Program-made: the position numbers and the translations under genes
DNA from: Anaerolineales bacterium
GTDB lineage: Bacteria > Chloroflexota > Anaerolineae > Anaerolineales > UBA4823
Direction of reading: 5' to 3'
DNA: 50,705 nt
NCBI GenBank assembly: GCA_041556275.1
Contig: JBFFIU010000001.1
Span: 1-50,705 of the forward strand
Part shown: piece after piece, positions 12,621 through 45,523 of the stretch
Layout of the letters: each line of letters opens with the position of its first letter
Numbering within the stretch: the stretch's first letter is position 1
The notes under the pieces: model-generated
The model's database searches: none
Told to the model about the DNA's origin: nothing
Seen by the model: only the letters and a program-made list of their open reading frames with translations

Positions 12621-12641
12621 TGCTTTTAAGCGAGGGTGCTT

Positions 12642-13100: not shown

Positions 13101-13142
13101 GCTTTTTACTCCATTTATTACACTCTATACCGATCACCCTCG

Positions 13143-15160: not shown

Positions 15161-15201
15161 ATGCAGTACTTCACCGATAAGGAGATTTTCACGCTATCCC
15201 G

Positions 15202-15750: not shown

Positions 15751-15792
15751 GACGGTTTAATGCGCTTTCACTTTCATTTTGAAAATCCCGGG

Positions 15793-16401: not shown

Positions 16402-16436
16402 ACTCAGATTCTATGCTCCTAGGATGCGACCAAAAG

Positions 16437-19018: not shown

Positions 19019-19089
19019 TGCGTGAAACGCATTATCAATTGCATTTCACGCATCAGTAGATCAATCAAAAACGAAACCCTGACAATACA

Positions 19090-19602: not shown

Positions 19603-19720
19603 ATATTGCTCCTCCGTCACCAACTTTTATCGTATTGTCCTGTTACAACTCTTAATTCTGTCACACCTAGATTAAAGCAACCTGAGAGAATACCAAATTA
19701 AGCATGAGAGTGCGATTAAT

Positions 19721-22167: not shown

Positions 22168-23427
22168 ATGATGAAAACCTTGAAATTTGTTTTGATGATT
22201 GGCAGCTTGTTGATCATAATCGCTGCACTGGCAGCTTGCGGAGGGCAAGATGGTCCGCAAGGGCCTGCAGGTCCCGTTGGTCCACCTGGTCCAGATGGTC
22301 CGCATGGCCCTACCGGACCCGAAGGTCCGGTAGGGCCAGCTGGTGCTGAGGGGGAGACTGGCACTGGTGTGACAGGGGCTGAGTATGTAGGCAGCGCTAC
22401 ATGCGGCGGTTGCCACAAGGATACTTACGATACCTTTATTCAATCCGGTCACCCCTGGAAATTGAACCCTGTGATCGACGGACAGCCTCCAGATTACCCT
22501 TTTACAGGTTTACCTGAATTACCAGAGGGTTACACCTGGGATGATATTTCTTACGTGATTGGCGGATACAACTGGAAAGCCCGCTTCATTGACCAGGATG
22601 GCTACATCATCACAGACGAACCTGGCGCTTCAGGCAATGAAGAGTATCTCAACCAGTACAATTTCGCTAACCCGATCGTGGGCACCGAAGCCGGTTGGGT
22701 GACCTACCACTCAGGTGAATTAGAGAAGCCTTATGACTGCGGCGCATGCCATACGACCGGTTACAGCCCCAACGGCAACCAGGACGACCTGCCGGGCCTG
22801 GTCGGGACCTGGGCTGAACCTGGCATCATGTGCGAGGAATGCCACGGTCCGGGAGGCATGCACGTTAAAAACCCGCAGGGTGTTCAAATGACCATCGACC
22901 GAGATGCGGAGCAGTGCGGCAAATGCCATAGCCGCGAGGAGATCGAATCGGTCAATGCCAGCGGTGGCTTTATCCGTCACCACGAACAATATGAGGAGCT
23001 CTTCCAGGGTAAGCACATCGCCCTGGACTGCGTGATCTGCCACGATCCTCATCAAGGCGTCGTGCAGCTGCGCCAGGCAGGCATTCAGACCACGCGCACA
23101 CAGTGCGAGAACTGCCATCTTGATGAAGCGCAATTTCAGAACTCGCTAATCCATCCTGCTGCAACGGAGTGCATCGACTGCCACATGCCGCGCATCGTCC
23201 TGTCTGCGGTAGGTGACCCGGAGAAATTTACTGGCGACATCCGCACCCACCTGATGCGCATCAACCCCACCCAGATCGAGCAGTTTACCGAGGATGGCAG
23301 TGCCTCCCTTTCAGAGATCGGGCTGAATTTCGCCTGCCGGCACTGTCATGGCGTGACTGCCTCGGAAAAGAGTGACGAAGAATTGATCGAAAATGCAACT
23401 GATTACCACACGCCAACGGAGGAGTAA
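22168..23427 (+). CDS. Octaheme cytochrome c lipoprotein with an N-terminal collagen-like Gly-X-Y stalk
   Basis: Signal peptide and lipobox LAAC. 13 uninterrupted GXY triplets. 8 CXXCH motifs (CGGCH, CGACH, CEECH, CGKCH, CVICH, CENCH, CIDCH, CRHCH). Confidence 0.85.
22243..22359 (+). repeat. Collagen-like triplet repeat (13 x Gly-X-Y), coding
   Basis: [39 protein letters not shown]. Confidence 0.85.
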
Positions 23428-25841: not shown

Positions 25842-25842
25842 A

Positions 25843-26502: not shown

Positions 26503-26505
26503 GAT

Positions 26506-31353: not shown

Positions 31354-31489
31354 TAGACCTCAGAATGTTCCTCCGAATAATAATAGTTCAATGTCCAATT
31401 TAATTATGCCGAGGAGGTTCACTATGTAAACTAACAAATAAAATACGATGGATTGGGGTTACCGAATGATTGATTTGAGGAGGTGCAGC

Positions 31490-32824
31490 ATGCTTCGTAA
31501 ATTCACTTTTATAACAATGCTTATTTTTGCTACACTGCTGTTAGCGGCTTGTGCTGGTGATCAAGGTCCCGAGGGGCCTGAGGGACCACCAGGACCCGCA
31601 GGTCCAGCTGGAGCTCAAGGCCCAGAAGGTTCACCAGGAACCGAGTTGACTGAAGATCAACTTGCGGCACTGGAAACTGCAGGCAATTTGGCTGGCATTC
31701 AGTTTCCGACTTTAGATGAGGTGCGTAGAGGTTGTCCGGCCTGCCATGTACTGGTAGATGAGGAAACTGGACAATATACACTTCCATATGAGGCTCACGA
31801 AAGGGCTGAAGCTCGTGGAGAAGAACATCCGGAGACTGCTCCAGATGGAACCTCGCTCGCAGCAACAGAGGAAGTTAATGTCACAACTTGCTTGCAATGT
31901 CACGCAGCCGGCACCGGTGATCGGGCTGGAAAAGGGGTCATTGCCCCACTGGCATTGCGTGATATCGTCCATCCTGCACACATGTACAGCCAGTGGTTTA
32001 AACTTCACTACGGCGGTAACTGCTTCACTTGCCACAATGTAGATGGTGAAGGCAATTGGGAATTGCTTACCGAAAAAGTTGAAGTGAATGAGAAAGGCGT
32101 CCCTGACCCGGATGCAGTGCCGATCCCGGGCGCCATTGCGATTGGTGGAGCACCATCATTATCAGGTTCAGTGGCCGCTGGCGGGAGATTGTACGACAAA
32201 TGGTGGAAAGAAGTTGGAGTAGACGAACCCAGTACGGACCAACCCTTGTGGGCTTCTCAAACCACCAACACCCGCAGTGGTGGCGACACCTGGCGTTGCA
32301 AAGAATGTCACGGGTGGGATTACAAGGGTGCCGACGGCGCTTATGGTTCTGGTTCCCACTTCACTGGTTTCCCTGGTGTGTTTGATGTCCAATCAGAATC
32401 CTTTGACACGATCGTAGCTTTTATTGATGGAAGCGCTAATTCGGATCACGACTTTTCAGCAATGGGTGATGAGGCTATCAATGACCTGGCGGCTTTTCTT
32501 TCTACTGGTCTTGCCGACTACGCACCCCTAATAAATGCCGAGACGAAAGCAGCCAACGGTGGCGACACCGCAAATGGCGAGTCTCTCTATGCTGCTTGTT
32601 CTGCTTGCCATGGAGAAGATGGGCGCTTGATCAATTTCGGAGATGACGACGATCCAACATACGTTGGTACTGTCGCCTTAGATAACCCTTGGGAGTTTCT
32701 GCATAAGGTACGCGCTGGTCAGCCTGGTACTGCTATGCCAGCCTCCCTTGATGCGAACTGGAGTATGGATGACTTGCTAGACCTGTTAGCTTTCTCCCAG
32801 ACTCTACCAACCGAGGTACCTTAA
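31490..32824 (+). CDS. Pentaheme cytochrome c lipoprotein with an N-terminal collagen-like Gly-X-Y stalk
   Basis: The ATG at 31490 follows a GAGGAGG RBS. Lipobox LAAC, 10 GXY triplets, and CPACH, CLQCH, CFTCH, CKECH, CSACH. Confidence 0.8.
   Translation: MLRKFTFITMLIFATLLLAACAGDQGPEGPEGPPGPAGPAGAQGPEGSPGTELTEDQLAALETAGNLAGIQFPTLDEVRRGCPACHVLVDEETGQYTLPYEAHERAEARGEEHPETAPDGTSLAATEEVNVTTCLQCHAAGTGDRAGKGVIAPLALRDIVHPAHMYSQWFKLHYGGNCFTCHNVDGEGNWELLTEKVEVNEKGVPDPDAVPIPGAIAIGGAPSLSGSVAAGGRLYDKWWKEVGVDEPSTDQPLWASQTTNTRSGGDTWRCKECHGWDYKGADGAYGSGSHFTGFPGVFDVQSESFDTIVAFIDGSANSDHDFSAMGDEAINDLAAFLSTGLADYAPLINAETKAANGGDTANGESLYAACSACHGEDGRLINFGDDDDPTYVGTVALDNPWEFLHKVRAGQPGTAMPASLDANWSMDDLLDLLAFSQTLPTEVP
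31556..31645 (+). repeat. Collagen-like triplet repeat (10 x Gly-X-Y), coding
   Basis: GDQGPEGPEGPPGPAGPAGAQGPEGSPGTE. Confidence 0.8.
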
Positions 32825-32908: not shown

Positions 32909-33424
32909 ATGAACCGTCTCTGGTTGATCGTAATTTTTATCTTGATCGTAACGGGTGTCATCGTTGGGGTGATTCTCACCCGAAATCAGGTTTATGCAGC
33001 TCCCGAACAACCGATTGCATACAGCCATGAAGTCCATGTCCAGGCAGGCATCCAATGCCTTTACTGCCATCCTAGCGCGCTACAGTCGCCCATAGCAGGT
33101 ATTCCATCCGTGCAGAAATGCATGGGCTGTCACAATGTAATTCAAACAGAAAGCCCAGAAATACAGCAGGTTAGCAGCTACTATGAGAGTGGGCAGCCAA
33201 TTCCTTGGGAGAGGATCAACAGACAACCGGATTTTATCTATTTTAGTCATCAACCTCATCTTGGTGCGGGACTTAATTGTGAAACCTGCCACGGTGATGT
33301 TGGTCAAATGGATGTAACTCAACAAACCGTGAAGATGGATATGGGTTGGTGTCTGGATTGCCATTTACAACAACCTGAAGAAAAAGTAGGTCGTCTCGCT
33401 GACTGCCTTACTTGCCACAAGTGA
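32909..33424 (+). CDS. actA: Alternative Complex III subunit ActA (pentaheme cytochrome c)
   Basis: N-terminal TM helix. CLYCH, CMGCH, CETCH, CLDCH, CLTCH. Lies directly upstream of the actB-like genes. Confidence 0.85.
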   Translation: MNRLWLIVIFILIVTGVIVGVILTRNQVYAAPEQPIAYSHEVHVQAGIQCLYCHPSALQSPIAGIPSVQKCMGCHNVIQTESPEIQQVSSYYESGQPIPWERINRQPDFIYFSHQPHLGAGLNCETCHGDVGQMDVTQQTVKMDMGWCLDCHLQQPEEKVGRLADCLTCHK

Positions 33425-33431
33425 TAATGAA

Positions 33432-35645
33432 ATGACAAAGAAGATTTCCCGACGTGATTTCTTGAAGATTAGCGGCGGAGCTGCAGTAGTTACCGGCGCC
33501 GCTCATGGCGCTCGAAACCTCATAATTGAGCCATACGTGAATCCTCCTGAAGAAGATTTGCCAGGTAAGGCTACCTGGTATGCCAGCACATGCCGCCAAT
33601 GTCCCGCAGGATGCGGAATCATTGTGCGGGTGATCAATGGAAGGGCCAAGAAAATTGAAGGTAATCCTCTGCACCCCCTCAATCAGGGAAAGCTGTGCGC
33701 CCGTGGGCAAGCTGGGCTCCAGGCACTTTATAACCCTGACCGGCTTAAAAATGCAGTCATTCAGACCGGAGGGCGCGGGTCTCTGATGTTCGAACCGTTA
33801 TATTGGTCGGAAGCATTGGATATCTTTACTGAAAAGCTCAACAGCCTGAGTGATCCAAGTCGAGTTGCATTTTTAGGCGGGTTGATGCCCTCGCATTTAT
33901 TTGCGTTGAGTACACGTTTGCTTAATGCATTGGGGGCGCAAGTCCCCATAATCTACGATCTGCACGCGGCACTTGAGGGTCGCAGATCTATGGTTCAACT
34001 CTCGGAAGATTTATTTGGCGCTCCTGAGTTACCCGTTTACGATCTAGCTAATGCCGAGGTTGTCTTCTCGTTTGGCGCAAATTTTCTAGAAACTTGGATG
34101 TCTCCCGTCTCCCAAACCTTTGCATTTGGAACTATGCGTCAAGGTCAATTCGGGGGTCGTGGATTTCTTGTCCAATTCGAACCGCGCCTATCAGCGACAG
34201 GCGCTTCTGCTGACGAATGGATTCCGCTAAAGCCGGGGGCCGAGGGTTACGTCGCTTTAGCGCTTGGCCGTATTATCGTCGAAGAGCGTTTAGGTAATAT
34301 CGGCAGTCATCGCCCTTATGCTGGAATGTATCAGAATATCGATGTGCGTGAGATGGCCAATGCCAGCCAAGTCCCGTTCGAAGATCTCAACCGATTAGCT
34401 CGCATTTTTGCCGATGCGGATCAGGCTATTGCTATTCCAGGTGGTGGGGTGGCCGGACAATACAATGGGCAGGCGAGTATGCTGGCAATTCAAGCTCTCA
34501 ATTTACTCGTCGCTCAAATCGGAAGGGTGGGAGGTGTCTTCTTATCGCAACCTGGTCCCACTGCTGCATTTCGCCAGAATCCAAAAACAGCCTCATTTGA
34601 ACAGGTTATGGACTTAGTGGAACGCATGAAATCCGGTGACATCGACCTTCTGTTGATCTATGGCACGAATCCAGTATTTGAAATGCCTGCCTCAGCAGGA
34701 TTCGCGGATGCTATCGCACGCGTACCATACGTCATCTCTTTCAGTCCATTTGTCGATGAGACTGCTGTCCGCTCTGACCTGATTTTGCCTGACCATTCTT
34801 ATCTGGAGTCTTGGGGCTACGAAGTACCAGCACCAGGAGCTGGGAAACCGATAGTATCCAGTCAACAACCAGTCGTACGACCAATTTACGACACGCGTTC
34901 GACCGGAGAGGTCTTCCTGGAGCTTGCTGACCGTTTGGGTGGCGAAGTGGCAGCTGCCCTGCCTTGGATAGATGAGATGGCTTTCATGCAAGAGCTAGCG
35001 GTGGAATTGCATGGCTCCAGCCTAGGAGCGTACGATGCCAAGACCCAAAGTAGTTTCTGGGCTCTCTGGCGACAATATGGTGGGTGGTGGACCGAAAAGG
35101 AAATCCCGCGCGAGCCTGAACTCACCACAATCGTCCAAGAGGCTTTACCGGTTTCTGAGCCTGTCTTTGATGGTGAAGAGGAGACATTCCCATATCACCT
35201 TCATCCATATCCATCAATTGTGCTCTCAGATGGACGGGGCGCAAACCAACCCTGGTTGCAGGGAGCGCCAGATCCAATGACCACTGCCAGTTGGGGAACT
35301 TGGGTGGAATTAAATCCTGAGACTGCCAGATCGTTAGGTGTACACGATAATGATATTGTGCGTGTGATCTCTCCAAATGGTGAATTGGAAGCTCCCGTTG
35401 TCATTTATCCTGGAATTCGACCTGATGTTATAGCTATCCCTGTTGGGCAAGGGCACAGTCAATGTGGTCGTTTTGCCCAACGAAGGGGAAGCAATCCAAT
35501 CGCTTTGTTATCTCCACTAACTGACCCAGACACTGGTTCGCTTGCATGGGGGGCTACTCGGGTGAAGATCGAGCCGACTGGGCATAAAAAAATCCTGCCA
35601 AGACATGAGAGTCTGGCTGGGGAAGGACGAGAATCTATTGGCTAA
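33432..35645 (+). CDS. actB: ACIII subunit ActB1 (molybdopterin-oxidoreductase-like domain, Tat signal)
   Basis: RRDFLKISGGAAVVTGA. N-terminal Cys cluster CRQCPAGCG...CARG. Size and context are as in the PsrA/ActB family. Confidence 0.85.
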   Translation: MTKKISRRDFLKISGGAAVVTGAAHGARNLIIEPYVNPPEEDLPGKATWYASTCRQCPAGCGIIVRVINGRAKKIEGNPLHPLNQGKLCARGQAGLQALYNPDRLKNAVIQTGGRGSLMFEPLYWSEALDIFTEKLNSLSDPSRVAFLGGLMPSHLFALSTRLLNALGAQVPIIYDLHAALEGRRSMVQLSEDLFGAPELPVYDLANAEVVFSFGANFLETWMSPVSQTFAFGTMRQGQFGGRGFLVQFEPRLSATGASADEWIPLKPGAEGYVALALGRIIVEERLGNIGSHRPYAGMYQNIDVREMANASQVPFEDLNRLARIFADADQAIAIPGGGVAGQYNGQASMLAIQALNLLVAQIGRVGGVFLSQPGPTAAFRQNPKTASFEQVMDLVERMKSGDIDLLLIYGTNPVFEMPASAGFADAIARVPYVISFSPFVDETAVRSDLILPDHSYLESWGYEVPAPGAGKPIVSSQQPVVRPIYDTRSTGEVFLELADRLGGEVAAALPWIDEMAFMQELAVELHGSSLGAYDAKTQSSFWALWRQYGGWWTEKEIPREPELTTIVQEALPVSEPVFDGEEETFPYHLHPYPSIVLSDGRGANQPWLQGAPDPMTTASWGTWVELNPETARSLGVHDNDIVRVISPNGELEAPVVIYPGIRPDVIAIPVGQGHSQCGRFAQRRGSNPIALLSPLTDPDTGSLAWGATRVKIEPTGHKKILPRHESLAGEGRESIG

Positions 35646-36342
35646 CACAGAACCCCGGTGGGCCATGATCGTGGATCTTGACCGCTGTACGGGATGCCAG
35701 GCATGTGTAATCGCCTGCCAGGCGGAAAACAACGTACCCACGGTTGGCGAGTCTGAAACAGAAAAAGGGCGCTGGTTACATTGGATCCATATTGAACGTT
35801 ATTGGGAAGGCGAATACCCAAATATTAAGGCACGCTTTATGCCGGTCATGTGCCAGCAATGCAGTGAGGCTCCTTGCGAACCAGTCTGCCCAGTGTTTGC
35901 TACCTATCATACGCCGGAAGGTTTAAACGCCCAAATCTACAACCGCTGCATTGGCACCCGCTTCTGCGGCAGTGCTTGCCCATACAAAGTGCGTACTTAC
36001 AATTGGTTTCGCCCCGAATTCCCGGAGCCATTGAACGAGCAGCTCAACCCAGATGTGACCATCCGCTCTCGAGGTCTGATAGAGAAGTGCACATTTTGTA
36101 TTCAGCGCATTCGAAGAATTGAAATCGAGGCTCATGCCCAGGGACGAGAACCGGCTGATGGCGAGATTCAACCCGCCTGCGTGCAAACCTGTCCACCTGG
36201 TGCGTTGGTTTTTGGTGACTTGAATGATCCAAACAGTCGGGTGAGCCAATTGGAGACGAGCCATCGATCCTTCAAACTCCTGGGAGAGCTGGGCACCAGC
36301 CCAGGGGTGATCTACCTAAAAGGAGGCGAAACGAATGTCTGA
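35605..36342 (+). CDS. actB: ACIII subunit ActB2 (4Fe-4S ferredoxin-type, PsrB/NrfC-like)
   Basis: RWAMIVDLDRCTGCQACVIACQAENN, CQQCSEAPCEPVCP, CIGTRFCGSACPYKV. The start is uncertain: ATG 35605 overlaps actB1 by 41 nt, and the alternative is ATG 35665. Confidence 0.8.
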   Translation: MRVWLGKDENLLANTEPRWAMIVDLDRCTGCQACVIACQAENNVPTVGESETEKGRWLHWIHIERYWEGEYPNIKARFMPVMCQQCSEAPCEPVCPVFATYHTPEGLNAQIYNRCIGTRFCGSACPYKVRTYNWFRPEFPEPLNEQLNPDVTIRSRGLIEKCTFCIQRIRRIEIEAHAQGREPADGEIQPACVQTCPPGALVFGDLNDPNSRVSQLETSHRSFKLLGELGTSPGVIYLKGGETNV

Positions 36343-37756
36343 ATCAGAGGTGCTGGCATACCCTGAGGAGAGCGGCGCTGCAGAATTCGAAGATCGCCTA
36401 CTCCTCTCCGAACGTACGAGTTCAGAAATTAATCAAGCCGTGCTTGAACCAATGTTTCGATCAAGCTGGCGATTTTGGTTGCTGGTAGCATTTCTAAGCG
36501 TATTAGTCTTATGGGGACTTTTTGCCTGGGGATACCTAATTTATTGGGGCATGGGGACGGCGGGCATCAATCGACCAGTCTACTGGGGGTTTTTCATCGC
36601 CACCTTCGTTTTTTGGGTCGGTATCAGCCATGCAGGGACGATGATCTCCGCGGTATTGCGCTTATTGAAAGCAGATTGGCGGCGACCAATTACGCGAGGT
36701 GCAGAAGCAATGACTGCATTTGCGCTGATGATGGCTGGATTATTTCCCTTTATCCATCTCGGGAGAGTATGGAAGTTTTATTGGATGATTCCTTATCCCA
36801 ACAACCGCTTTATGTGGCCAAATTTCCAATCGCCTCTAATGTGGGATATGGTTGCCATCTTTACCTATTTCATCGGTTCTACCCTTTATCTCTACCTGGC
36901 TCTGATCCCGGACCTTGCGATGGCGCGCGACCACACCAGCAGATGGCGCCAGAAATTGTATCGGATATTATCTCTTGGCTGGCGCGGCACGGAGGCAGAG
37001 TGGCATAAACTCCATCGTGCCTTAAGCATCTTTTCAATTGCCATCATCCCGATCTTCTTATCTGTGCACTCGATCGTCTCCTGGGATTTTGCAGTAACGA
37101 TTCAACCCCGCTGGCACAGCACGATATTCGCTCCCTATTTTGTGGTTGGCGCCATCTATTCCGGATTGGCAGCCTTAGCCTGTATCCTGGTTATTGTGCG
37201 CAAGGGAATGCAACTGCAGGAATTCCTGCGTGCAGAGCACTTCGACGCTTTGGGGAAATTAGTTTTGGTGGCAGGTATGGCCTGGACTTACTTCTGGTTC
37301 GCAGGGTTTATTGTTGAATGGTATGGCAATGAACCAGTGATTAGAGAATTAATCCATGAGGAGGTTTTCGGAGATCTGGCCCCACTTTTCTATCTACAAA
37401 TGTCTGCGAACTTGATCCCGATTGTGCTGCTTGTTTTCAAGAAGGTCCGTGTTACACCCTGGCTCTTGCTTCTCACAACGTTATTAGTGAATGTTGGTAT
37501 GTTTACTGAGCGTGTATTAATCGTTGTTGGTAGTTTGCAGCGCAACTTCATGCCTTTCAATTGGGGCGACTATAGCCCAACCTGGGTAGAAGTGAGCATT
37601 GTCGTGATGACTTTCGCTGGGTTTGCGCTTCTATATACAATATTTTCCCGTGTCTTCCCATACGTACCAGTATGGGAGATCAAGGAGGGGCGCCTGCGCT
37701 ATACGGTGCGCCGTATCGGTCGTTTGTTGGTGCCAACTGCCGCCGAGATCGAATAG
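36335..37756 (+). CDS. actC: ACIII subunit ActC (NrfD/PsrC-like quinol-interacting membrane subunit)
   Basis: 473 aa with about 10 TM helices, placed after the Fe-S subunit. Confidence 0.85.
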   Translation: MSESEVLAYPEESGAAEFEDRLLLSERTSSEINQAVLEPMFRSSWRFWLLVAFLSVLVLWGLFAWGYLIYWGMGTAGINRPVYWGFFIATFVFWVGISHAGTMISAVLRLLKADWRRPITRGAEAMTAFALMMAGLFPFIHLGRVWKFYWMIPYPNNRFMWPNFQSPLMWDMVAIFTYFIGSTLYLYLALIPDLAMARDHTSRWRQKLYRILSLGWRGTEAEWHKLHRALSIFSIAIIPIFLSVHSIVSWDFAVTIQPRWHSTIFAPYFVVGAIYSGLAALACILVIVRKGMQLQEFLRAEHFDALGKLVLVAGMAWTYFWFAGFIVEWYGNEPVIRELIHEEVFGDLAPLFYLQMSANLIPIVLLVFKKVRVTPWLLLLTTLLVNVGMFTERVLIVVGSLQRNFMPFNWGDYSPTWVEVSIVVMTFAGFALLYTIFSRVFPYVPVWEIKEGRLRYTVRRIGRLLVPTAAEIE

Positions 37757-37882
37757 CTCTGCTGGCAAAGCCTGATTGTTGGAAATGTAAATAAATACTT
37801 TATTTCTACATCACCATATTCGATGGGCTCAAAAGTCCAACAAGGGAAGTTGCTTTGCGGAAATTAAACGAATACAATTGAT

Positions 37883-38410
37883 ATGAACAATCAAATGATC
37901 ACTCTGATCGCTCTATTTGATGAGAGCATTGACACTGCCAAGGCTGTAGATGAACTTCACAGCATAGGTATTTCAGAAGAGAAGATGGTCGTCATGACGG
38001 ATGTACCCTACCCAGAACGGGCATTGGGAAGGACCCGGGAGTGGCTGACCTTACCCTATATCGTGGTCGCCGGAGCAGTTTTGGGACTGCTAATTGGCTT
38101 GTTTTTATCTGCCATCACTCCCCACCTCTATCGTCTGGATGTGGGCGGTCACCCTCCGGTTGGCTTTCCACCAGCAGCTGTGATCACATTCGTCTTTACG
38201 ATGATGGCGATCATTGTCTCTACTTTCCTCGGTGTTCTTTGGGAAATGGACTTCCCCCGCTTTGGTCCAGCCCCCTATCACAAAGCAGTCACCGATGGCA
38301 AACTCGGGGTGCTCTTAGAATTCCCTTCTGAATTGCAGGAAAAAGTTAATACCGTCCTTAAGGCCAATAAGGCTGACTACATCGGGGAACCGGAGATGAT
38401 TTCGCTATGA
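37883..38410 (+). CDS. actD: ACIII subunit ActD (DUF3341-like)
   Basis: 175 aa. A soluble N-terminal domain (LIALFDESIDTAKAVDEL) followed by 2 TM helices. Called mainly from its position in the cluster. Confidence 0.7.
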   Translation: MNNQMITLIALFDESIDTAKAVDELHSIGISEEKMVVMTDVPYPERALGRTREWLTLPYIVVAGAVLGLLIGLFLSAITPHLYRLDVGGHPPVGFPPAAVITFVFTMMAIIVSTFLGVLWEMDFPRFGPAPYHKAVTDGKLGVLLEFPSELQEKVNTVLKANKADYIGEPEMISL

Positions 38411-38913
38411 ACCCTCGTTTGCAGCGTGGATTACTCATCATTGCGATTATCCTCACGCCGTTCATCATTGGCCTCTTTTTCACCTTCGAAATTTTGAAAA
38501 TCCCGTATACCACAGACATGCAAAATCAGATTTCGATAAACTACCAAGAGAGTCCCCGCATATTGCCACCCGATGGAGCAGTGCCAGTACAAGGTCTGGC
38601 GGTAATCCCCGATGAATTTCCAGTTAATCCCATTTCAATGGATGAGGTCTCTTTGCAGCGGGGCAAAGTCCTTTTTGATCTACATTGTCTGGTTTGTCAT
38701 GGAGAAAATGGCCACGGAGACGGACCACTGGCGCATCACTTCACGCGCACGCCAGAAAACCTGACCAGCTCGCAAATAACCGCCGAATTTGATGGTGCCG
38801 TCTATTTGACCATCCGAAATGGTTTTGGTCAGATGCCAGCTTTATATGAAAACCTAACGCCCCACGAAACCTGGGATGTGGTGAATTACCTTCACACGCT
38901 ACCGGTGAGGTGA
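38407..38913 (+). CDS. actE: ACIII subunit ActE (monoheme cytochrome c)
   Basis: N-terminal TM helix, CLVCHGENGHGDG, ATGA overlap with actD. Confidence 0.7.
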   Translation: MNPRLQRGLLIIAIILTPFIIGLFFTFEILKIPYTTDMQNQISINYQESPRILPPDGAVPVQGLAVIPDEFPVNPISMDEVSLQRGKVLFDLHCLVCHGENGHGDGPLAHHFTRTPENLTSSQITAEFDGAVYLTIRNGFGQMPALYENLTPHETWDVVNYLHTLPVR

Positions 38914-38922
38914 TGAGAAAAT

Positions 38923-39969
38923 ATGATAAACAAATATTTAAAATTTACCCCCATCATTATTTTGATTTTGACCGCCTGTACTGCGCCGCAAAGTCTCCCT
39001 TCGGGTCCTACACCGATCCCAACTCTGGTACCCGCGACTGAACCCAGCAGCCCTCTGACTGAAACAGCAGTACCGTCATTCCCGATCCAGAGCTACCCTG
39101 CGCGGCTGCCTTCAGCCGAGTTGGGTCAGCCACTTTACCAGACTCACTGTGCCAGCTGCCATGGTGAGGATGGCAATGGAGTGGTTCCTGGCGCACGCAA
39201 TTTTGGCGACCTGGATTATATGCGAGGCGAAACCCCGGCTTCCTTCTATACTGCGGTCACTGAAGGTCGCGGTGAAATGCAAGGATTTCTCGACACATTG
39301 ACCTCGGACGAGCTCTGGGACGTGGTATTTTACGTCTGGCGATTTTCCACCGATGCTGAAAAACTTGCACTTGGACAGCATCTTTATGATGATAATTGCG
39401 TGGCTTGCCACGGGGAAGATGGTACTGGTGAAGTTCTGGGTGCTGCCGATTTCTCTGACCTGCGGGTTGTCGATGACCAGGCTCCTCGAGATTTCTACTT
39501 GGTCACCACACAAGGTAAAGGCTCAATGCCAGCCTGGCAGGGTCGGCTCTCACAGGATGAACGCTGGGCGGTGATCGACTATGTACGCACTTTCTCTTAT
39601 GACCCATCCCTACCAGGGGAGGCTGCTGCTCAAACTCCACCGACCGCCACTCCTCAGGAAATTGTTTGTGATCCAAAATATCTGACCCAAACCAATCCTT
39701 TTGATTGGGATGATTCAGCTGCTATTTCAGCTGGTGAGGTGATTTACAGTCAATCTTGTGCCATGTGTCATGGTGTTGATGGCTCTGGCGGGATTCCAGG
39801 CGCTCCTGATTACACAGATTCCGCAGTTGCAGATGATTTGCGTGCCAATAGTAGTGAAAAACTTTGTATTGTTGCAGATGGCAAAGAATCAATGCCTGGT
39901 TGGAAAGAGACACTCACCGATGAGCAAATGTGGGAGCTTTTAACTTATCTTTACTCATTCCGAAAATAA
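38923..39969 (+). CDS. Triheme (three class-I domains) cytochrome c lipoprotein
   Basis: Lipobox LTAC. CASCHGEDGNG, CVACHGEDGTG, CAMCHGVDGSG. Confidence 0.8.
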   Translation: MINKYLKFTPIIILILTACTAPQSLPSGPTPIPTLVPATEPSSPLTETAVPSFPIQSYPARLPSAELGQPLYQTHCASCHGEDGNGVVPGARNFGDLDYMRGETPASFYTAVTEGRGEMQGFLDTLTSDELWDVVFYVWRFSTDAEKLALGQHLYDDNCVACHGEDGTGEVLGAADFSDLRVVDDQAPRDFYLVTTQGKGSMPAWQGRLSQDERWAVIDYVRTFSYDPSLPGEAAAQTPPTATPQEIVCDPKYLTQTNPFDWDDSAAISAGEVIYSQSCAMCHGVDGSGGIPGAPDYTDSAVADDLRANSSEKLCIVADGKESMPGWKETLTDEQMWELLTYLYSFRK

Positions 39970-40094
39970 ATAAACAAAACCTGAGAGCCGACTCTATTGT
40001 AAAGAATCGTACTTGGTTTGACCGATCAGGTTTTTAATATATAATTCTATTCATATAAAAGTTAATAGAGAAATACTTTTGTCACCCATCCGAA

Positions 40095-40110
40095 GGTGAC
40101 ATTTGCCACT
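40095..40110. promoter_or_regulatory. Second copy of the CRP/FNR-like operator
   Basis: GGTGACATTTGCCACT matches the site at 21975-21990 at 13 of 16 positions, including the identical core GTGACATTTG. It is about 211 nt upstream of the hexaheme gene ATG. An additional TGTCAC half-site is at 40080-40085. Confidence 0.35.
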
Positions 40111-40313
40111 AATGTAGCGCTCATAATTGGGGTATAAATCCTATGGAAAACTACCCTAATTAAACTTGGCATGTAGAGAATTCTGCCAGGTGTTGTCTGG
40201 TATCATCAAGGGAAAGAAACCAGAAAGGAGGTTGCCTATCAGCAAATAGAAGAAAGATCGCCACACAAATATCATCGTCGTAAGTGTATCCGGATACACT
40301 CAAGGAGAATGTT

Positions 40314-41378
40314 ATGAAATATAAACACTTAATTATTGGGCTCCTCTTGCTGGTCACTGCCCTGGCTCTGGCAGCCTGTGCTAGTCAAGAAGGCCCTCCC
40401 GGACCTGAAGGTCCCCAAGGGCCCCCTGGTCCCGCTGGTCCTGAAGGCCCCCCTGGTCCCGAAGGACCCTCGGGCGAGGCCGGCGCGGCTGGGGCGGCCG
40501 CGGAGATGGGCGAGCTATCCTGCGCGGAGTGCCACACCGACGGCACGGAGCTCACCGGGCGGGCGACCGCCTGGGGTGATTCTGTGCATGGCATGGGTGA
40601 AGCCTATGTGCGTGGAACCAGTGCCAGCTGCGCTGGTTGCCACTCCGGTGGGGGCTTCAGCGCCAGGGTTGCCGCAGGTGTGGCCCCGGATGAGGTCGAG
40701 GAAGGGGATCCAAACCCAACTCGCCAGGACTGCCGGGCTTGCCATCAGATCCATGTCACCTACACAGGTGAAGATTGGGCCTTAGAGACCACCGACCCGG
40801 TGGATTTCTACGCTTTCGAAGGCGTGACCTACGATGGCGGCGAGGGCAACCTGTGCGCCAACTGCCACCAGCCTCGACGTGGGATCGCTGAACCAGACGC
40901 CGATGGCAATATTGAAGTCACCAGCACGCACTGGGGACCTCACCACGGTGGACAGGGTTCCATGTTGATGGGCGTAGCTGGCTCGCCTGACGTCGAAGGC
41001 AATCCCAGCTCACACGCCACTATGGTGGAAGGCACCTGCGTGACTTGCCACATGGGAGAGGAGTATAATCACTCCTTCGAACCCGCGGTGGAGCGCTGCC
41101 AGGAATGCCACTCTGGCATGGAAAGCTTCGATGATACCGGCTTGCAGACCGAGGTCCAGGAGAAGCTGGATCAACTGGAAGTGGAGCTGGTCGCCAGAGG
41201 TTGGCTCGATGAAGAGGGCCATCCAGCGGTAACGTTTGTCCCCGCTCCGGAAGCTTACGCCCTCTGGAACTGGATCTACATCGCTCATGAGGACGGCAGC
41301 CTGGGTGTTCACAACCCGGCCTACACCAGGGACTTGCTTGACGCCTCACTGGAAACATTAGGACTAGGTGGGGAGTAA
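40314..41378 (+). CDS. Hexaheme cytochrome c lipoprotein with an N-terminal collagen-like Gly-X-Y stalk
   Basis: The ATG at 40314 follows AAGGAGAA. Lipobox LAAC, 12 GXY triplets, and CAECH, CAGCH, CRACH, CANCH, CVTCH, CQECH. Confidence 0.8.
   Translation: MKYKHLIIGLLLLVTALALAACASQEGPPGPEGPQGPPGPAGPEGPPGPEGPSGEAGAAGAAAEMGELSCAECHTDGTELTGRATAWGDSVHGMGEAYVRGTSASCAGCHSGGGFSARVAAGVAPDEVEEGDPNPTRQDCRACHQIHVTYTGEDWALETTDPVDFYAFEGVTYDGGEGNLCANCHQPRRGIAEPDADGNIEVTSTHWGPHHGGQGSMLMGVAGSPDVEGNPSSHATMVEGTCVTCHMGEEYNHSFEPAVERCQECHSGMESFDDTGLQTEVQEKLDQLEVELVARGWLDEEGHPAVTFVPAPEAYALWNWIYIAHEDGSLGVHNPAYTRDLLDASLETLGLGGE
40392..40499 (+). repeat. Collagen-like triplet repeat (12 x Gly-X-Y), coding
   Basis: GPPGPEGPQGPPGPAGPEGPPGPEGPSGEAGAAGAA. 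Confidence 0.8.
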
Positions 41379-41530
41379 AAGAGGCAGGAGATACTGGTTG
41401 ATTTGCTAACCGGAAATCATGCAAAGCCTCTTTTGCGACAGCAAAGTTGATATCGGTGGTGATGTCTCCGGTATAACCAGACCGGCAGCAACACAGTAAC
41501 CAACATCACTATCATCACCCACTGTATCAA

Positions 41531-41569
41531 AAACCGGGCACTGTTACCAGTGCCCGGTTTTCATTCTTA
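41531..41569 (+). terminator. Rho-independent terminator
   Basis: AACCGGGCACTG (41532-41543) / CAGTGCCCGGTT (41548-41559), loop TTAC, followed by TTCATTCTT. Confidence 0.6.
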
Positions 41570-41772
41570 ACAAAGTCAATCAAACAAAAATCTAAAAGCC
41601 TTGATCAAAACCATTATTTTTTTTCTATCCAACTGAGCTGCGAAGATTTTCTAATGAGCAGAGGCTTCGCTTTGTTCAGCATGACAAATTATGCTTTTGG
41701 GATAAACTCTTAGGGGGATCGGGAAAATGACTAAATACCACCAGAATTTAAACATTAGGACACAAATATAAG

Positions 41773-42732
41773 TTACTCAGTCCTGAGACGGGAGCCGCAG
41801 GAACGACAGAATCGATCTCCTGCACCAGCTCGCTTGCCACATTGGTGGCAGTAGATCGCCTCTTGCGTGAATGCAGCAGCCGTCTCCTGGCGGGGAGCTC
41901 TTCGACGGCGGCGTGCTTTCGCAGGGGATTCCTGCTGGCCTGAACGCCAGTACCAGTACCCACCTCCGCCGATCAGGACCAGGCCCAGAAACACCAAAAG
42001 CCAGATCCACCACTGACCCAGGTTCAACATACCCACACTCCTAGGGGTGAGCGTCGCGCTGGGCTGTATTTGTAAACTTTGGATGCTCAAGGCATCCGAG
42101 TCTTTTTGATAGCTTAAATTAAGTTCAAAAGGTATGCCAGCCTGCAAAGCACCAACCTCGATCAGGTTATATGTAAAACCATCACTCCCTTGGATAATCC
42201 GCCCAACGGCCGGGGTCACGATCACATTTGAGGCCCCGATGGGATGCTGGATCTGCGCAATAAGAGAGTTCACTGCCAGATCGCCAGGCCACTCGTACAT
42301 AAATGTTCGCTGCGCACCTTCCTTCACCAATCTGGGATCGTAATACTCAAACTGGATAGAGGGGGTGGTGGCGATAAAAGAGACATCAATCCAATCCCCC
42401 ATCACCTGTATGTCATAGACCACATCAGCCACCGAGCTCGGATCAAGTCCAACTGCCACTGCCGAAGGCTTACCAGCTTCAACAGGGATGCGGAAGGTGA
42501 CCTCGGCCGGCAAAGTAATCTGGGGCGAAAGGACAGCTTTGTAAATAACCAGCACGCCTGGATCGTCATATTCCGGCCAAAGGTCTATTGTCAATGTATC
42601 CAGACTGGGAGATTCTTGAGCTTTAACCGCAGGAACCAACCACAATATGGATATGAACAGGAACAGGGTAATTCTCTTGAGCAATCGATGGTCTCCAACC
42701 TTGAATTGTTCTACGGTTGTAAATCTTACCAT
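41773..42732 (-). CDS. Membrane protein with a beta-rich exported domain, one TM helix and a cytoplasmic zinc ribbon
   Basis: Signal peptide (LFLFISILWLVPAVKAQ), TM helix WWIWLLVFLGLVLIGGGGYWYW, an Arg-rich stretch, then YCHQCGKRAGAGDRFCRSCG. Confidence 0.5.
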   Translation of the reverse strand: MVRFTTVEQFKVGDHRLLKRITLFLFISILWLVPAVKAQESPSLDTLTIDLWPEYDDPGVLVIYKAVLSPQITLPAEVTFRIPVEAGKPSAVAVGLDPSSVADVVYDIQVMGDWIDVSFIATTPSIQFEYYDPRLVKEGAQRTFMYEWPGDLAVNSLIAQIQHPIGASNVIVTPAVGRIIQGSDGFTYNLIEVGALQAGIPFELNLSYQKDSDALSIQSLQIQPSATLTPRSVGMLNLGQWWIWLLVFLGLVLIGGGGYWYWRSGQQESPAKARRRRRAPRQETAAAFTQEAIYCHQCGKRAGAGDRFCRSCGSRLRTE

Positions 42733-42816: not shown

Positions 42817-43629
42817 TCAACCAATGGCAGACTTTAATTGCCGGGCGATGTCACCGAATTCAGCGCTATAGCGCATGCCTTCATCCCTGGGTCGCGGCAG
42901 CTCCACGGGTAGATCTAAACGGATCTGTCCTGGACGTGGGCTGAGCACCAACACCCGGTCTGACAGAAACACTGCTTCGGGTATGGCATGAGTCACCATG
43001 ATCACGGTCTTGCGATGAGTCTGCCAGATGCGCAAGAGTTCATCTCCCATCCGTTCGCGGGTGAGCGCATCCAGGGCGCCAAATGGTTCATCCAGCAGTA
43101 GAATGCGCGGGTCGTGAACCAGGGCGCGGGCGATCGCTACCCGCTGTTCCATCCCTCCGGACAAGTCTCTGGGCAGTGAACCCTCAAAACCTTCCAACCC
43201 AACCAAGCCCACCAGTTCCTGCGCCCGCTGGCGCGCCATGCTGGTTGGTATTTGCTGTAATTCCAATGGTAATGTAATATTCTCCAATACTGTCCTCCAG
43301 GGCATCAGATTCGCCTTCTGAAAGACAAAGCCAATCTCTCGCCGGGGGCCAAATAGTTTCTCCCCATCGTAAAAAACTTCTCCCCTTGTTGGAGACAACA
43401 AACCAGCCAACACCCGCAGCAGAGTGCTCTTACCGCTCCCAGAGGGACCCAAAATACAAACAAATTCTTCAGCCTGCACTGAAAAAGAGATCTGCTCCAA
43501 CACATCCAGGCCCACCTCCCCATCTGGAAATATCAGGCTCACATCTCGAACACTCAAGGTCGACCCTTCACCCAGAGGCTGTTGAAGGGGCTCGAATTTG
43601 GTCTTGATCCGATCACTCGACAAATTCAT
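42817..43629 (-). CDS. ABC transporter ATP-binding protein (NitT/TauT family)
   Basis: Walker A GPSGSGKST, signature LSGGMEQRVAIARAL, Walker B LLLDEPFGALD. Confidence 0.9.
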   Translation of the reverse strand: MNLSSDRIKTKFEPLQQPLGEGSTLSVRDVSLIFPDGEVGLDVLEQISFSVQAEEFVCILGPSGSGKSTLLRVLAGLLSPTRGEVFYDGEKLFGPRREIGFVFQKANLMPWRTVLENITLPLELQQIPTSMARQRAQELVGLVGLEGFEGSLPRDLSGGMEQRVAIARALVHDPRILLLDEPFGALDALTRERMGDELLRIWQTHRKTVIMVTHAIPEAVFLSDRVLVLSPRPGQIRLDLPVELPRPRDEGMRYSAEFGDIARQLKSAIG

Positions 43630-44629
43630 TTGTATATGCCTGGTCTATGTTTAGCGGCTGGGACAGCAATCCCATATCCAGCAGGATGGATTGCATGTTC
43701 TCCCAAGCAGCAGCATTTGAATACCCTAATCTATCTGTCTCCCAGAATCGAAGCGAGGCGGTTAAGACCTCTCTCTGGACAGACTGGTCAGCCTGGTCAA
43801 GATTCTCCACATATTTCTTGCTGATCTCAAAGGCCTCGTCCGGGTTGTCGAGCGTATCTGCCAGCCCGCGCAAACTGGCCTCCACCAATCGCCTCACCAG
43901 GTCTGGATTTTCGCTGATCGTCTTCTCGTTGGAGATGAGACCATTGGAGGCGAGCTGCACGTAATCCGCTACCTGGATCAGATCTATTTCATAGCCCAGT
44001 GCACCCAGCTGGATCGGCTCATTATTGGCGTATATCACCACAGCCTGATCCTGGTCTGTCGCCAGCGCCTCCACCTGGTTGAAACCGATCGAGTCGAGGA
44101 TGACATCATCCTCCCCTAGTCCAGCTTCGTTGAGCAGGGCGCGCAATCCAATGTAGTTGGCTCCGAACAACCCTGGCAGCCCAATGCGCTTGCCAGCCAG
44201 GTCCTGCGGGGTTTGCATACCTTGCTCTGATTTGGCGACTACACCTACTGGATACTCCTGCCACCAAGCCATGATATAAACGATTGGCAGATCTTGTGCC
44301 CGGGCTAACAGGACCTGTTCGCCGGAGACCAGGGCGAATTGCAAATCATCAGACCCGACCAGCGTCACGCCATCGGTTTCTAAACTGTAATCGAATTCAA
44401 CCTCAATACCATTCTCACGAAAATAGCCTTTATCAACCGCTACATAAAATGGCGCGTACTGCACATTGGGGATGAAACCCATCGATAAACGAATATTGTC
44501 TAATTCCTGTGTAGCAATGGGTTGTGTGCGGTCTTGTTCGATCTGAGCATCAGCACAAGCGGTGATAATCGCCGCTATCCCACAAATCAGGATGAGAATA
44601 CGCCAGTGAAACATGTTTGTATGCTCCAT
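43613..44629 (-). CDS. ABC substrate-binding lipoprotein (NMT1/THI5-like, SsuA/ThiY-type)
   Basis: Lipobox ITAC. LSMGFIPNVQYAPFYVAVDKGYFRENGIEVEF is typical of this SBP family. Confidence 0.8.
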   Translation of the reverse strand: MEHTNMFHWRILILICGIAAIITACADAQIEQDRTQPIATQELDNIRLSMGFIPNVQYAPFYVAVDKGYFRENGIEVEFDYSLETDGVTLVGSDDLQFALVSGEQVLLARAQDLPIVYIMAWWQEYPVGVVAKSEQGMQTPQDLAGKRIGLPGLFGANYIGLRALLNEAGLGEDDVILDSIGFNQVEALATDQDQAVVIYANNEPIQLGALGYEIDLIQVADYVQLASNGLISNEKTISENPDLVRRLVEASLRGLADTLDNPDEAFEISKKYVENLDQADQSVQREVLTASLRFWETDRLGYSNAAAWENMQSILLDMGLLSQPLNIDQAYTNEFVE

Positions 44630-44707: not shown

Positions 44708-45523
44708 TTAACCAGAACTGTCTGGGCGCTGCTGCCAGGATAGCAAGCGCAATTCAATCAGGACCACCAAGCCATACAGGGTCAAAGCCATACCAACCAG
44801 GGTGAAGATGGCCACAAACACCAGCGCTGTGTCGAACTGCCCACGACCGATGTTGATCAGAAAACCAAGGCCGCGGTCAGCTCCCACGAACTCGCCAACC
44901 ACAGCTCCAATGACAGCCAGCGTAGCCCCGATTCTCAACCCGCCCAGGAATACAGGTAAAGCGGCAGGGACCTCCAGGTATTTGAACGTCTGCCAGCGTG
45001 AGGCCTGCAGCGAGCGCATCAAGTTCCGCAGCTCGTCAGGCACAGAGCGTAAGCCAACAATAGTATTGATCAGCACCGGGAAGAAAACGATCAGGGCACA
45101 GATCATCACCTTGGAAAGCAAACCAGGACCAAACCAAATCACTAACAAAGGCGCAATTGCCACGATGGGAATGGATTGGCTGGCGACGATATAGGGCGCT
45201 AAAAAGCGTTCGAAGGTTTGCGATTTCGCCAGCAGATATCCCAGTGTAGTTGCCGCGCTGACTCCCAGAGCCAATCCTGCCAGAACCTCGCTTAAAGTAA
45301 CCCCGATATGATACAGCAAGCGTCCTTCCAGCAAAGCAATGAGGAAGCGTTTCCAAACTAAAGCAGGAGCAGGCAGCATGTAAGCCGGGTATCCCCCCAG
45401 CTGTGCAATAAGGTGCCAGATCAGCAGCGCTAGAGCGATTGAAAATGGCACCAGATAATATCCACGCCGCTGTAAGAGACGACTCGAACCAAGGGCAACT
45501 TTTCGCGTATCTATCAAATCCAT
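44708..45523 (-). CDS. ABC transporter permease (NitT/TauT family)
   Basis: 271 aa with 6 TM helices and an EAA-like loop (LMRSLQASRWQTFKYLEVPAALP). Confidence 0.85.
   Translation of the reverse strand: MDLIDTRKVALGSSRLLQRRGYYLVPFSIALALLIWHLIAQLGGYPAYMLPAPALVWKRFLIALLEGRLLYHIGVTLSEVLAGLALGVSAATTLGYLLAKSQTFERFLAPYIVASQSIPIVAIAPLLVIWFGPGLLSKVMICALIVFFPVLINTIVGLRSVPDELRNLMRSLQASRWQTFKYLEVPAALPVFLGGLRIGATLAVIGAVVGEFVGADRGLGFLINIGRGQFDTALVFVAIFTLVGMALTLYGLVVLIELRLLSWQQRPDSSG

Follow-up and report, generated by a model that had tools for sequence, protein, structure and literature searches.

Collagen-like stalks on lipid-anchored multiheme cytochromes of Anaerolineales and their relatives

The contig JBFFIU010000001.1 (assembly GCA_041556275.1) of an Anaerolineales bacterium contains, within the stretch of 50,705 nucleotides analyzed here (hereafter, the window), a gene for a lipoprotein in which a lipobox is followed by an uninterrupted run of Gly-X-Y (GXY) triplets and a head with six heme-binding CXXCH motifs. 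The question raised by this locus is what a collagen-like segment might do between the membrane anchor and the hemes of a c-type cytochrome. The answer favored here, with a probability of about 0.55, is that the product is an extracytoplasmic, lipid-anchored hexaheme cytochrome carried on a trimeric collagen-like stalk, with the head reducing acceptors beyond the membrane. Both the head superfamily and the collagen module are already known; their combination, the hexaheme subfamily and its distribution appear to be undescribed. A literature search identifies no paper that ties collagen-like repeats to multiheme or c-type cytochromes, and term searches of the papers on OcwA, Carboxydothermus ferrireducens, Ardenticatena, the Chloroflexi supergroup and NrfA evolution find collagen unmentioned.

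The gene product and its collagen-like stalk

The translation contains everything that the initial annotation had read from the nucleotide sequence of this gene, namely, a lipoprotein in which the residues ASQE precede 12 GXY triplets and the motifs CAECH, CAGCH, CRACH, CANCH, CVTCH and CQECH follow in this order (coordinates of all features are collected in Table 1). The N-terminus of the protein is MKYKHLIIGLLLLVTALALAAC, and its signal sequence LLLLVTALALAAC finishes in L-A-A-C (residues 19-22), in agreement with the [LVI][ASTVI][GAS]C pattern of bacterial lipoboxes. The cysteine, Cys22, which is predicted to be acylated, shows conservation of 90% or more in alignments A1, A2 and A4. As expected of a multiheme c-type cytochrome, each of the six CXXCH motifs is either invariant or conserved to 99% or more, the protein has a lipoprotein signal peptide, and ccm genes are present in the window (positions 10283-19623).

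Database entries disagree about where this protein begins. An identical (100%) head is encoded on 16 public contigs, where the gene is called from the internal Met65 (entry P0001), and 39 of the 120 best database entries, among them P0001, P0002 and P0004, start after the stalk. These are mostly Joint Genome Institute (JGI) calls that open with an internal Met, Val or Leu directly past the stalk, with the loss of the signal peptide and the collagen-like segment. Taken at face value, they would mean that the collagen-like segment is not translated and that the true product is the 290-residue form starting at Met65, as JGI calls it. The probability of such an artefact is practically negligible. 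A c-type cytochrome has to be exported to acquire heme, and the short form is rejected as a real protein because it lacks an export signal. The long form, in contrast, has a canonical lipoprotein signal, an open frame and a correctly spaced Shine-Dalgarno sequence (AAGGAGA, 40302-40308, 5 nt ahead of the ATG at 40314). Furthermore, the signal peptide and the stalk are kept in frame across hundreds of relatives despite differing codons and lengths, and the short calls use ATG, GTG or TTG at non-homologous positions, as is typical of start miscalls. Such miscalls may be one reason why the stalked architecture went unreported.

The stalk consists of the triplets GPP GPE GPQ GPP GPA GPE GPP GPE GPS GEA GAA GAA. 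Proline occupies the X position in 9 of the 12 triplets and accounts for 12 of the 36 residues; the acidic residues are four glutamates (three at Y and one at X), and there is no lysine or arginine. The segment thus combines an uninterrupted (Gly-X-Y)n run with a high imino-acid content, the two sequence features of collagen-like proteins. The hidden Markov model (HMM) of the Pfam Collagen family, PF01391, matches it with the E-value of 7.4e-6 and 26.1 bits, just short of the cutoff of 27.2 bits, which is exceeded by relatives of the protein.

Among the 218 N-terminally complete members of the family, 177 possess at least four uninterrupted GXY triplets between the lipobox cysteine and heme 1. 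The overall range is 4-23 triplets, with 7-23 (median 9) in close relatives and 4-16 (median 8) in cluster representatives. Usually, the run begins one residue past the lipobox cysteine and stops 1-9 residues short of the heme-1 cysteine, so that it covers a median of 79% of this linker in the complete members, and the distance between the two cysteines is strongly non-uniform modulo 3 (91/45/11). In the Chloroflexota clade, proline predominates at X, with Ala, Gln, Pro or Glu at Y; a distant clade has GxDGxDG-type triplets with Lys, Thr or Val at X. The X and Y residues therefore drift between clades (P/A/E/Q versus P/D/K/T) while the glycine period remains constant. The stalk is beyond chance because the glycine period is retained in 177 of the 218 complete members, and the alignments argue that it is selected rather than incidental. 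A composition that drifts over a fixed glycine period is, at the level of sequence, the pattern predicted by selection for a triple helix and not by selection for a merely flexible linker. We infer a trimeric triple helix that, with a rise of about 0.29 nm per residue, would reach a length of about 10 nm; in a single-chain AlphaFold2 (AF2) model, residues 23-50 are extended (pLDDT 82-89). Of the architecture proposed in the initial annotation, the multiheme lipoprotein cytochrome on a collagen-like spacer is thus confirmed, and the term stalk, taken to mean a trimeric triple helix, is kept in conditional form, on the strength of periodicity and comparative patterns.

Well-known bacterial proteins of the PF01391 family, Scl1/Scl2, BclA and Lcl, resemble the hexaheme protein in having uninterrupted GXY triplets with proline mainly at X, no evident hydroxylation system, and a rod placed between an anchor and a globular head; BclA (1wck) is matched in a PDB search with the E-value of 0.006. 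However, these proteins act as adhesins or are located on the spore surface, and they have tens of triplets, an LPXTG or exosporium anchor and non-redox heads, compared with the 4-23 triplets, N-terminal lipid anchor and multiheme cytochrome head of the family described here. By analogy, the collagen-like region could attach to minerals, cells or a sheath, as in Scl, Lcl and BclA, the hemes being secondary. The protein does give weak matches to the Scl2 and Lcl models (E-values 2.5e-4 and 4e-3, far under the cutoffs), and one relative is named 'collagen-like protein' by NCBI, but these model matches mirror the GXY composition only. With the membrane anchor on one side and the head on the other, the stalk is less exposed than any other part of the molecule; it is short, acidic and featureless, and is exchangeable for SLH or transmembrane (TM) anchors in relatives, so that an adhesive role appears very improbable.

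Homology and hemes of the head

A PDB search started with the single sequence of the hexaheme protein identifies collagen peptides only, and a family profile is needed to detect the homology of the head. The best match of the profile is OcwA (TherJR_2595 from Thermincola potens JR, PDB 6I5B), with E-values of 1.6e-18 to 4e-18, followed by 6QVM, the undecaheme S-layer cytochrome of Carboxydothermus ferrireducens (E-values 1e-15 to 1e-17, positions 118-339), and then by NrfA, HAO and octaheme nitrite reductases (E-values 1e-12 to 1e-5). The same order is obtained by fold comparison. The AF2 model built from the deep alignment A4 (pLDDT 92.8, pTM 0.80) identifies OcwA as the top Foldseek match (E-value 2.9e-5, probability 1.0, TMq 0.49, 302 columns) and 6QVM, 'undecaheme cytochrome from S-layer', as the second (E-value 1.7e-3, probability 1.0), with NrfA-type enzymes after them. 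An earlier AF2 model built from close homologues only (alignment A1; pLDDT 72.8, with a poor N-terminal half) yielded nothing significant in Foldseek.

Profile positions 68-340 align contiguously to residues 257-498 of OcwA (E-value 4e-18). In this alignment, hemes 2-6 of the family fall on the OcwA motifs CLKCH, CQVCH, CTQCH, CVDCH (continued as CVDCHM) and CSSCH, which are OcwA hemes 5-9 when counted over the nine motifs visible in the alignments; OcwA heme 9 is His/Met. Hemes 5-9 of OcwA constitute its NrfA-like core (PMC6703420). The sequence and fold homology, the collinearity of the last five heme motifs and the C-terminal helical bundle together place the head in the OcwA/NrfA superfamily. 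The bundle carries the ED-S-GVHNP-Y motif (D-S-GVHN in the comparison with OcwA), which is a hallmark common to the hexaheme head, OcwA, NrfA, HAO and MccA.

Both the hexaheme protein and OcwA are extracytoplasmic and come from monoderm hosts. Nevertheless, with six hemes instead of nine, the hexaheme protein is a relative of OcwA and not its orthologue. The alignment starts only at OcwA residue 257, with the c554-like N-terminal hemes and the beta-sheet domain lacking in the hexaheme protein, and the identity is about 20%. For OcwA, only a signal peptide is described and the terms 'lipoprotein' and 'collagen' are absent from the publication (PMC6703420), whereas the hexaheme protein is a stalked lipoprotein. 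The second match, 6QVM, is likewise a cytochrome found at the surface of an Fe(III)-reducing Gram-positive bacterium, but has eleven hemes, 681 amino acids and another mode of surface attachment, with no collagen-like segment. It is probably OmhA, for whose gene the same length of 681 amino acids is given (PMC7829351).

The similarity to NrfA, octaheme nitrite reductase, HAO and MccA involves the last hemes and the C-terminal helices, and the corresponding fold matches are weak (E-values 0.04 to 0.5). The hexaheme protein is not an NrfA, because the active-site CXXCK motif is absent, with CXXCH in its place, and no NrfA model is matched (neither PF02335 nor an NrfA NCBIfam entry; Pfam Cytochrom_C552 does not match the window protein either). 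The region of the first NrfA heme is unaligned, an NrfA triad is not identified, the hexaheme protein is much smaller, and the known members of the superfamily are not lipid-anchored via a stalk. Assignment to the MtrC/OmcA-type decaheme cytochromes is rejected as well: the PF22113 match is partial (81 residues), the MtrC profile matches of about 1e-9 include no single passing stretch, and MtrC is not among the Foldseek matches of the hexaheme model.

The family motif WGPHHG, which includes His210 and His211, is aligned opposite 'VHHPHKEM' of OcwA, so that the two His-His pairs, the OcwA one preceding PHKEM, coincide. Among 150 diverse sequences, the first histidine of the pair is 100% conserved and the second position, 211, is occupied by His in 77% and by Tyr in 18%; exactly five other non-motif histidines (H92, H147, H234, H253 and H333) are at least 91% conserved in this set. 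In OcwA, the HH380/381 motif sits over the open distal face of the penta-coordinate heme 5 (PMC6703420). By homology, an arrangement of five bis-His hemes (1 and 3-6) with an OcwA-type open heme 2 would be favored for the hexaheme head.

An open heme is compatible with the hypothesis that the head is an enzyme with a soluble substrate, which would perform NrfA/OcwA-type catalysis at heme 2 on nitrite, hydroxylamine, NO (nitric oxide) or sulfite, with the stalk merely retaining the head in a cell without a periplasm. Hemes 2-6 map onto the NrfA-like core of OcwA and the family retains the His-His pocket; nitrite and hydroxylamine are both reduced by OcwA (PMC6703420), the head is soluble and periplasmic in Planctomycetota, and several family members match Cytochrom_C552 (NrfA) in Pfam. 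Conversely, the heme-2 motif is CXXCH and not CXXCK, no catalytic Arg/Tyr/His triad or Ca2+ site is identified, and the six conserved non-motif histidines also permit six bis-His hemes. In addition, the two top solved matches are both cell-surface metal reductases, and the neighboring genes encode electron-transfer modules rather than components of nitrogen or sulfur pathways. This enzymatic role is a possibility to be kept in mind, albeit an unlikely one; it bears on the head alone and does not conflict with the stalk model.

A head-only search identifies 2371 homologues in a 90%-clustered collection and 1185 clusters at 50% identity (E-value of 1e-3 or lower). A close relative is present in 503 of 185,579 species-representative genomes, mostly of Anaerolineales and other Chloroflexota, and also of Acidimicrobiia, Thermoleophilia, Planctomycetota and others. 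Cultured Bacteroidota, namely, Maribellus sediminis and Mariniphaga anaerophila, belong to the distant clade (35-45% identity). The homologues are named 'hypothetical', 'cytochrome c3 family' or 'collagen-like protein' in databases, and Pfam and NCBIfam scans of the window protein detect no family-specific model for the head. Three loci encode tandem stalked hexaheme paralogues with equal stalk lengths, namely, L001 (10001-11062 and 11548-12615; 13/13 triplets), L013 (11/11) and L039 (13/13). In locus L086, a stalked hexaheme gene of the distant clade is followed by genes for a 402-residue protein without a Pfam match (9116-10324) and a 301-residue multiheme cytochrome (10317-11222), which may represent a conserved three-gene module.

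Interchangeable anchors and other stalked cytochromes

The way in which the head is attached differs between lineages. Most loci of Anaerolineales, other Chloroflexota and Actinomycetota encode a lipobox and 6-18 triplets, with a plain signal peptide in three loci of this group (L010, L059 and L079). In Planctomycetota, all 11 loci encode the same head with a plain Sec signal, without a lipobox and without a stalk. Several Thermoleophilia and other members have an SLH domain (PF00395, E-values 1e-10 to 1e-14) in place of the stalk; further substitutes are a TM helix with a Ser/Thr/Pro linker or a lipobox with a Thr/Glu/Pro linker. Judging from this distribution, the type of anchor depends on the type of envelope. 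Since the anchors swap (SLH, TM, other linkers or none), the stalk is one of several interchangeable ways to hold the head at or in the wall; it is not confined to monoderms, because Bacteroidota use it too.

At the position of the stalk, some members (P0104, P0131 and P0127) have clearly disordered linkers rich in Ser, Thr, Pro and Glu. These linkers are compatible with a monomeric protein on a semi-flexible, polyproline-II-like leash, the head sweeping the membrane surface between Alternative complex III (ACIII) or a bc complex and terminal enzymes, with neither a triple helix nor an outward reach. Rhodobacter cytochrome cy and the lipoprotein cytochromes c of Bacillus and Heliobacteria are likewise tethered by a spacer where a soluble carrier would be lost, although their linkers are disordered and rich in Ala and Pro and each protein is a monomer with a single heme, in contrast to the strict collagen period and six hemes of the family in question. 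A shuttle of this kind would remove the problem of electron access to the head; moreover, the stalk is short, neither OcwA nor NrfA is a trimer, and the gene adjoins quinol-oxidizing complexes. A leash, however, requires length and flexibility, not a glycine at every third residue. It leaves unaccounted for a period that is unbroken in the great majority of complete members (177 of 218) despite clade-specific X and Y residues, a linker length quantized modulo 3 and matches of relatives above the threshold of the Collagen HMM, and the SLH-anchored variants put the same head in the wall layer. A tethered shuttle is accordingly viewed as doubtful, and the trimeric stalk is retained as the preferred interpretation.

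The hexaheme protein is not the only stalked cytochrome in the window. A six-frame scan of the whole 50.7 kb detects only three collagen-like runs of at least five triplets in a coding frame, in the octaheme, pentaheme and hexaheme lipoproteins (Table 1). Each run is preceded by a lipobox and followed by CXXCH motifs, as the initial annotation had claimed in assigning the same stalk architecture to three cytochromes. The three proteins are not paralogues, because pairwise BLAST comparison of the heads finds nothing beyond the heme motifs. Relatives of the octaheme protein are stalked in 61 of 71 N-terminally complete cases (6-19 triplets; the remainder have plain signal peptides), and the pentaheme orthologue in CP070764 is stalked as well. 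A fourth stalked type is encoded in locus L039 (position ~3270, plus strand), with a lipobox, 11 GXY triplets and a 729-residue head containing 10 CXXCH motifs; this decaheme head has no homologue among the three stalked heads of the window. By sequence comparison, the stalk is a portable module that is found on non-homologous heads.

The lengths of hexaheme and octaheme stalks encoded on the same contig are correlated (r = 0.85, n = 7, p = 0.014), and so are those of the hexaheme stalk and any other stalked cytochrome on the same contig (r = 0.66, n = 10), both samples being small and kinship being ignored. This suggests that stalk length might be set per organism. Conceivably, though this is speculative and rather improbable, the stalk is a genome-specific molecular ruler: matched lengths on penta-, hexa-, octa- and decaheme trimeric heads would create a common redox layer at a constant height of some 6-15 nm over the membrane, inside the wall or at its outer face, within which electrons would hop laterally and outward. 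If true, this would be a case of protein-scaffolded electron transfer across a monoderm envelope, possibly with mixed (heterotrimeric) stalks.

Genomic setting and a possible route for electrons

Table 1. Features of the collagen-stalked cytochrome genes and their surroundings (positions in the window)
Feature	Position	Strand	Remarks
Octaheme lipoprotein	22168..23427	+	14 GXY triplets (22243-22368); NapC/NirT-type cytochrome gene next
Pentaheme lipoprotein	31448..32824	+	10 GXY triplets (31556-31645); head ends in a class-I cytochrome c domain
ACIII operon (ActA, ActB1, ActB2, ActC, ActD, ActE) and triheme class-I cytochrome c lipoprotein	32909..39969	+	
Palindrome TGTCAC-N10-GTGACA	40080..40101	+	Candidate operator; half-sites conserved, spacer variable in 5 relatives (alignment A3)
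Conserved block CTCATAATTGGGGTATAAAT	40120-40139	+	Possible -10 region; ~20 nt downstream of TGTCAC-N10-GTGACA
Conserved block AGAAAGGAGGTTGCC	~40215-40240		Five relatives
Perfect 18-bp palindrome AGTGTATCCGGATACACT	40283..40300	+	1 nt upstream of the Shine-Dalgarno sequence AAGGAGA; unique in the window
Coding sequence of the collagen-stalked hexaheme lipoprotein	40314..41378	+	354 aa; stop codon ends at 41378
Lipoprotein signal peptide	40314..40379	+	Ends in lipobox LAAC; Cys22 (40377-40379) is the predicted lipidated N-terminus
Collagen-like stalk	40392..40499	+	12 unbroken Gly-X-Y triplets
Hexaheme head, OcwA/NrfA superfamily	40500..41375	+	Profile versus PDB, AF2, Foldseek
CXXCH motifs	40521-40535, 40629-40643, 40731-40745, 40854-40868, 41037-41051, 41097-41111	+	
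His210-His211 motif (WGPHHG)	40941..40946	+	Aligned with the His-His pocket at the open distal face of OcwA heme 5
C-terminal helical bundle	41133..41357	+	Residues 274-348; conserved ED-S-GVHNP-Y motif
Intrinsic terminator	41530..41572	+	14-bp GC-rich hairpin (41530-41561, free energy -24.7 kcal/mol, z -7.2), then UUUUCAUUCUU

The hexaheme gene is located 344 nt downstream of an operon that the initial annotation had recognized as encoding ACIII, and this assignment is supported by an ActD match to PF11821 (E-value 4.5e-20), an NrfD-type ActC, a QrcB-like ActB and a pentaheme ActA. As a candidate ACIII subunit, the hexaheme protein is rejected: it matches no Act family in Pfam or NCBIfam, and the gene is set apart by the 344-nt gap and by upstream blocks and a terminator of its own. 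In CP070764 (69% identity), genes for a response regulator, the stalked pentaheme protein, ACIII, the triheme protein and the hexaheme protein occur in the same order as in the window. In other genomes, the neighborhood includes NarL-type two-component systems, a Rieske/cytochrome b/multiheme c complex, NrfD-type modules, ccm and heme-synthesis genes, and further multiheme cytochromes; CcmE/F/A/B families adjoin one hexaheme homologue. Because the neighbors vary but are respiratory, the association is with a respiratory island and not with ACIII specifically.

Several other genes in the window are of interest. An unusual Rieske/split cytochrome b complex is encoded at 25359-28623 (plus strand), with the PetD-like C-terminal part fused to a multi-domain class-I cytochrome c with seven CXXCH motifs (705 aa), and this arrangement recurs beside hexaheme homologues in loci L004 and L005. 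A NarL-type histidine kinase (28708-30213, plus strand; HAMP, HisKA_3 and HATPase domains) has two CXXCH motifs in its extracytoplasmic sensor part, which suggests a heme-c redox sensor that would act on the adjacent response regulator (30210-30866) and perhaps also on the cytochrome genes. On the minus strand, an Rfam search identifies a flavin mononucleotide (FMN) riboswitch (RF00050, 45674-45847, 95.5 bits, E-value 7e-21) upstream of an ATP-binding cassette (ABC) transporter operon that consists of genes for a permease (44708-45523), an NMT1/THI5-like binding lipoprotein (43613-44629) and an ATPase (42817-43629). This operon, about 4 kb from the cytochrome island, may be involved in the uptake of flavin or a flavin precursor; OcwA has been reported to bind FMN. 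Finally, two membrane proteins with C-terminal zinc-ribbon motifs (CxxC...CxxC), encoded on the minus strand at 41773-42732 and 15202-15750, flank the cytochrome and ccm regions.

The 344-nt region upstream of the hexaheme gene contains four non-coding blocks that are conserved in five relatives, two of them palindromic. The TGTCAC-N10-GTGACA palindrome is unique in the window, with 0 occurrences expected by chance. It corresponds to the CRP-like site of the initial annotation: the palindrome is real and is kept across relatives, but its half-sites and 10-bp spacer are unlike those of CRP (TGTGA-N6-TCACA) or FNR, so that an assignment to either regulator is rejected, and no CRP or FNR consensus is found among the conserved upstream blocks. 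The 18-bp palindrome is invariant in six aligned loci except at its final position, which is T in four of them and A in L006 and L007, against a coding identity of 73-91%. Its interpretation as an RNA structure is unsupported because it folds like shuffled sequence (z -0.8), and the 5' region has no Rfam match at gathering thresholds. A near-consensus sigma-70 promoter at 40018-40045 is not conserved in relatives and is not relied upon.

Downstream, the gene has its own terminator, as had been noted, with a U-rich tract after the hairpin; a pattern scanner overlooked it as A/U pairs prolong the stem into the T run. The proposal of three independent transcription units for the three stalked cytochromes holds in part. 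The hexaheme gene looks monocistronic, but a search for terminators finds none that would separate the 22168 gene from the NapC/NirT-type gene (23537) or the 31448 gene from actA (32909). Both of these stalked genes thus probably lead operons, the 31448 gene being the probable first gene of the ACIII operon.

Taken together, these observations are compatible with the following mechanism. In the host, a monoderm member of the Anaerolineales (Chloroflexota), the protein would be exported by Sec, acylated at Cys22 and supplied with hemes by the Ccm system encoded in the window, and the mature form would remain bound to the outer face of the cytoplasmic membrane. The 36 post-anchor residues would wind with those of two other chains into a collagen-type triple helix, an acidic rod of about 10 nm that keeps three heads off the membrane and in the zone of the cell wall. 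Each head is a pruned relative of OcwA and OmhA, which serve Gram-positive metal reducers as terminal reductases at the cell surface; hemes 2-6 of the head correspond to OcwA hemes 5-9 and NrfA hemes 1-5, with one additional N-terminal heme, and the conserved His-His pair would form an OcwA-type open pocket over heme 2. Electrons would pass from menaquinol to ACIII, the Rieske/cytochrome b complex or NapC/NirT-type modules, then to cytochrome c subunits and other stalked cytochromes, and finally to the head, whose acceptors might be mineral Fe(III), flavins or other shuttles, or small oxyanions. The stalk would serve as a spacer and oligomerizer, not as a conductor; the rod may pivot at its lipid-anchored base, or electrons may arrive via neighboring heads at equal height.

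Several considerations weigh against this interpretation. Its main weakness is that collagen is non-conductive, so that a separate electron route is required to a head about 10 nm from the membrane. Trimerization is deduced from sequence periodicity, length quantization and comparative patterns; a run of twelve triplets without hydroxylation is on the short side for a free triple helix to be stable, and NrfA is a dimer, not a trimer. The open heme follows from the alignment and the histidine count, and this count is equally consistent with bis-His ligation of all six hemes, H210 being one of the ligands. The tie to the monoderm envelope and to extracellular acceptors is weakened by the stalked lipoprotein versions in diderm Bacteroidota and by the soluble periplasmic head in Planctomycetota. 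The linkage to ACIII is not general, being present in CP070764 and absent from three other genomes. Finally, OcwA, the nearest solved relative, is a mixture of monomer and dimer (PMC6703420).

The movement of respiratory electrons across, or into, the wall of bacteria without an outer membrane is still poorly understood, and the two cases with solved structures, OcwA and the S-layer cytochrome of C. ferrireducens, both come from thermophilic Firmicutes. The family described here is a shortened relative of these two proteins that is common in Anaerolineales, other Chloroflexota and Actinomycetota, and is present in Bacteroidota as well. Anaerolineales, other Chloroflexota and Actinomycetota are abundant in sediment, sludge and the subsurface and are rich in multiheme cytochromes. 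The lipid and the collagen-like rod form an easily recognized anchor common to at least four unrelated cytochrome families, and this signature provides a sequence handle for extracytoplasmic redox proteins in uncultured monoderms. The analysis also exposes a systematic annotation error, with about one third of the examined entries beginning past the stalk. Short hydroxyproline-free collagen rods that bear a heme protein could be of interest to protein engineers. For the biology of these bacteria, the natural anchor swaps (stalk, SLH domain, TM helix or none) track the envelope type, and the idea that stalk length sets the height of a cytochrome layer is testable.

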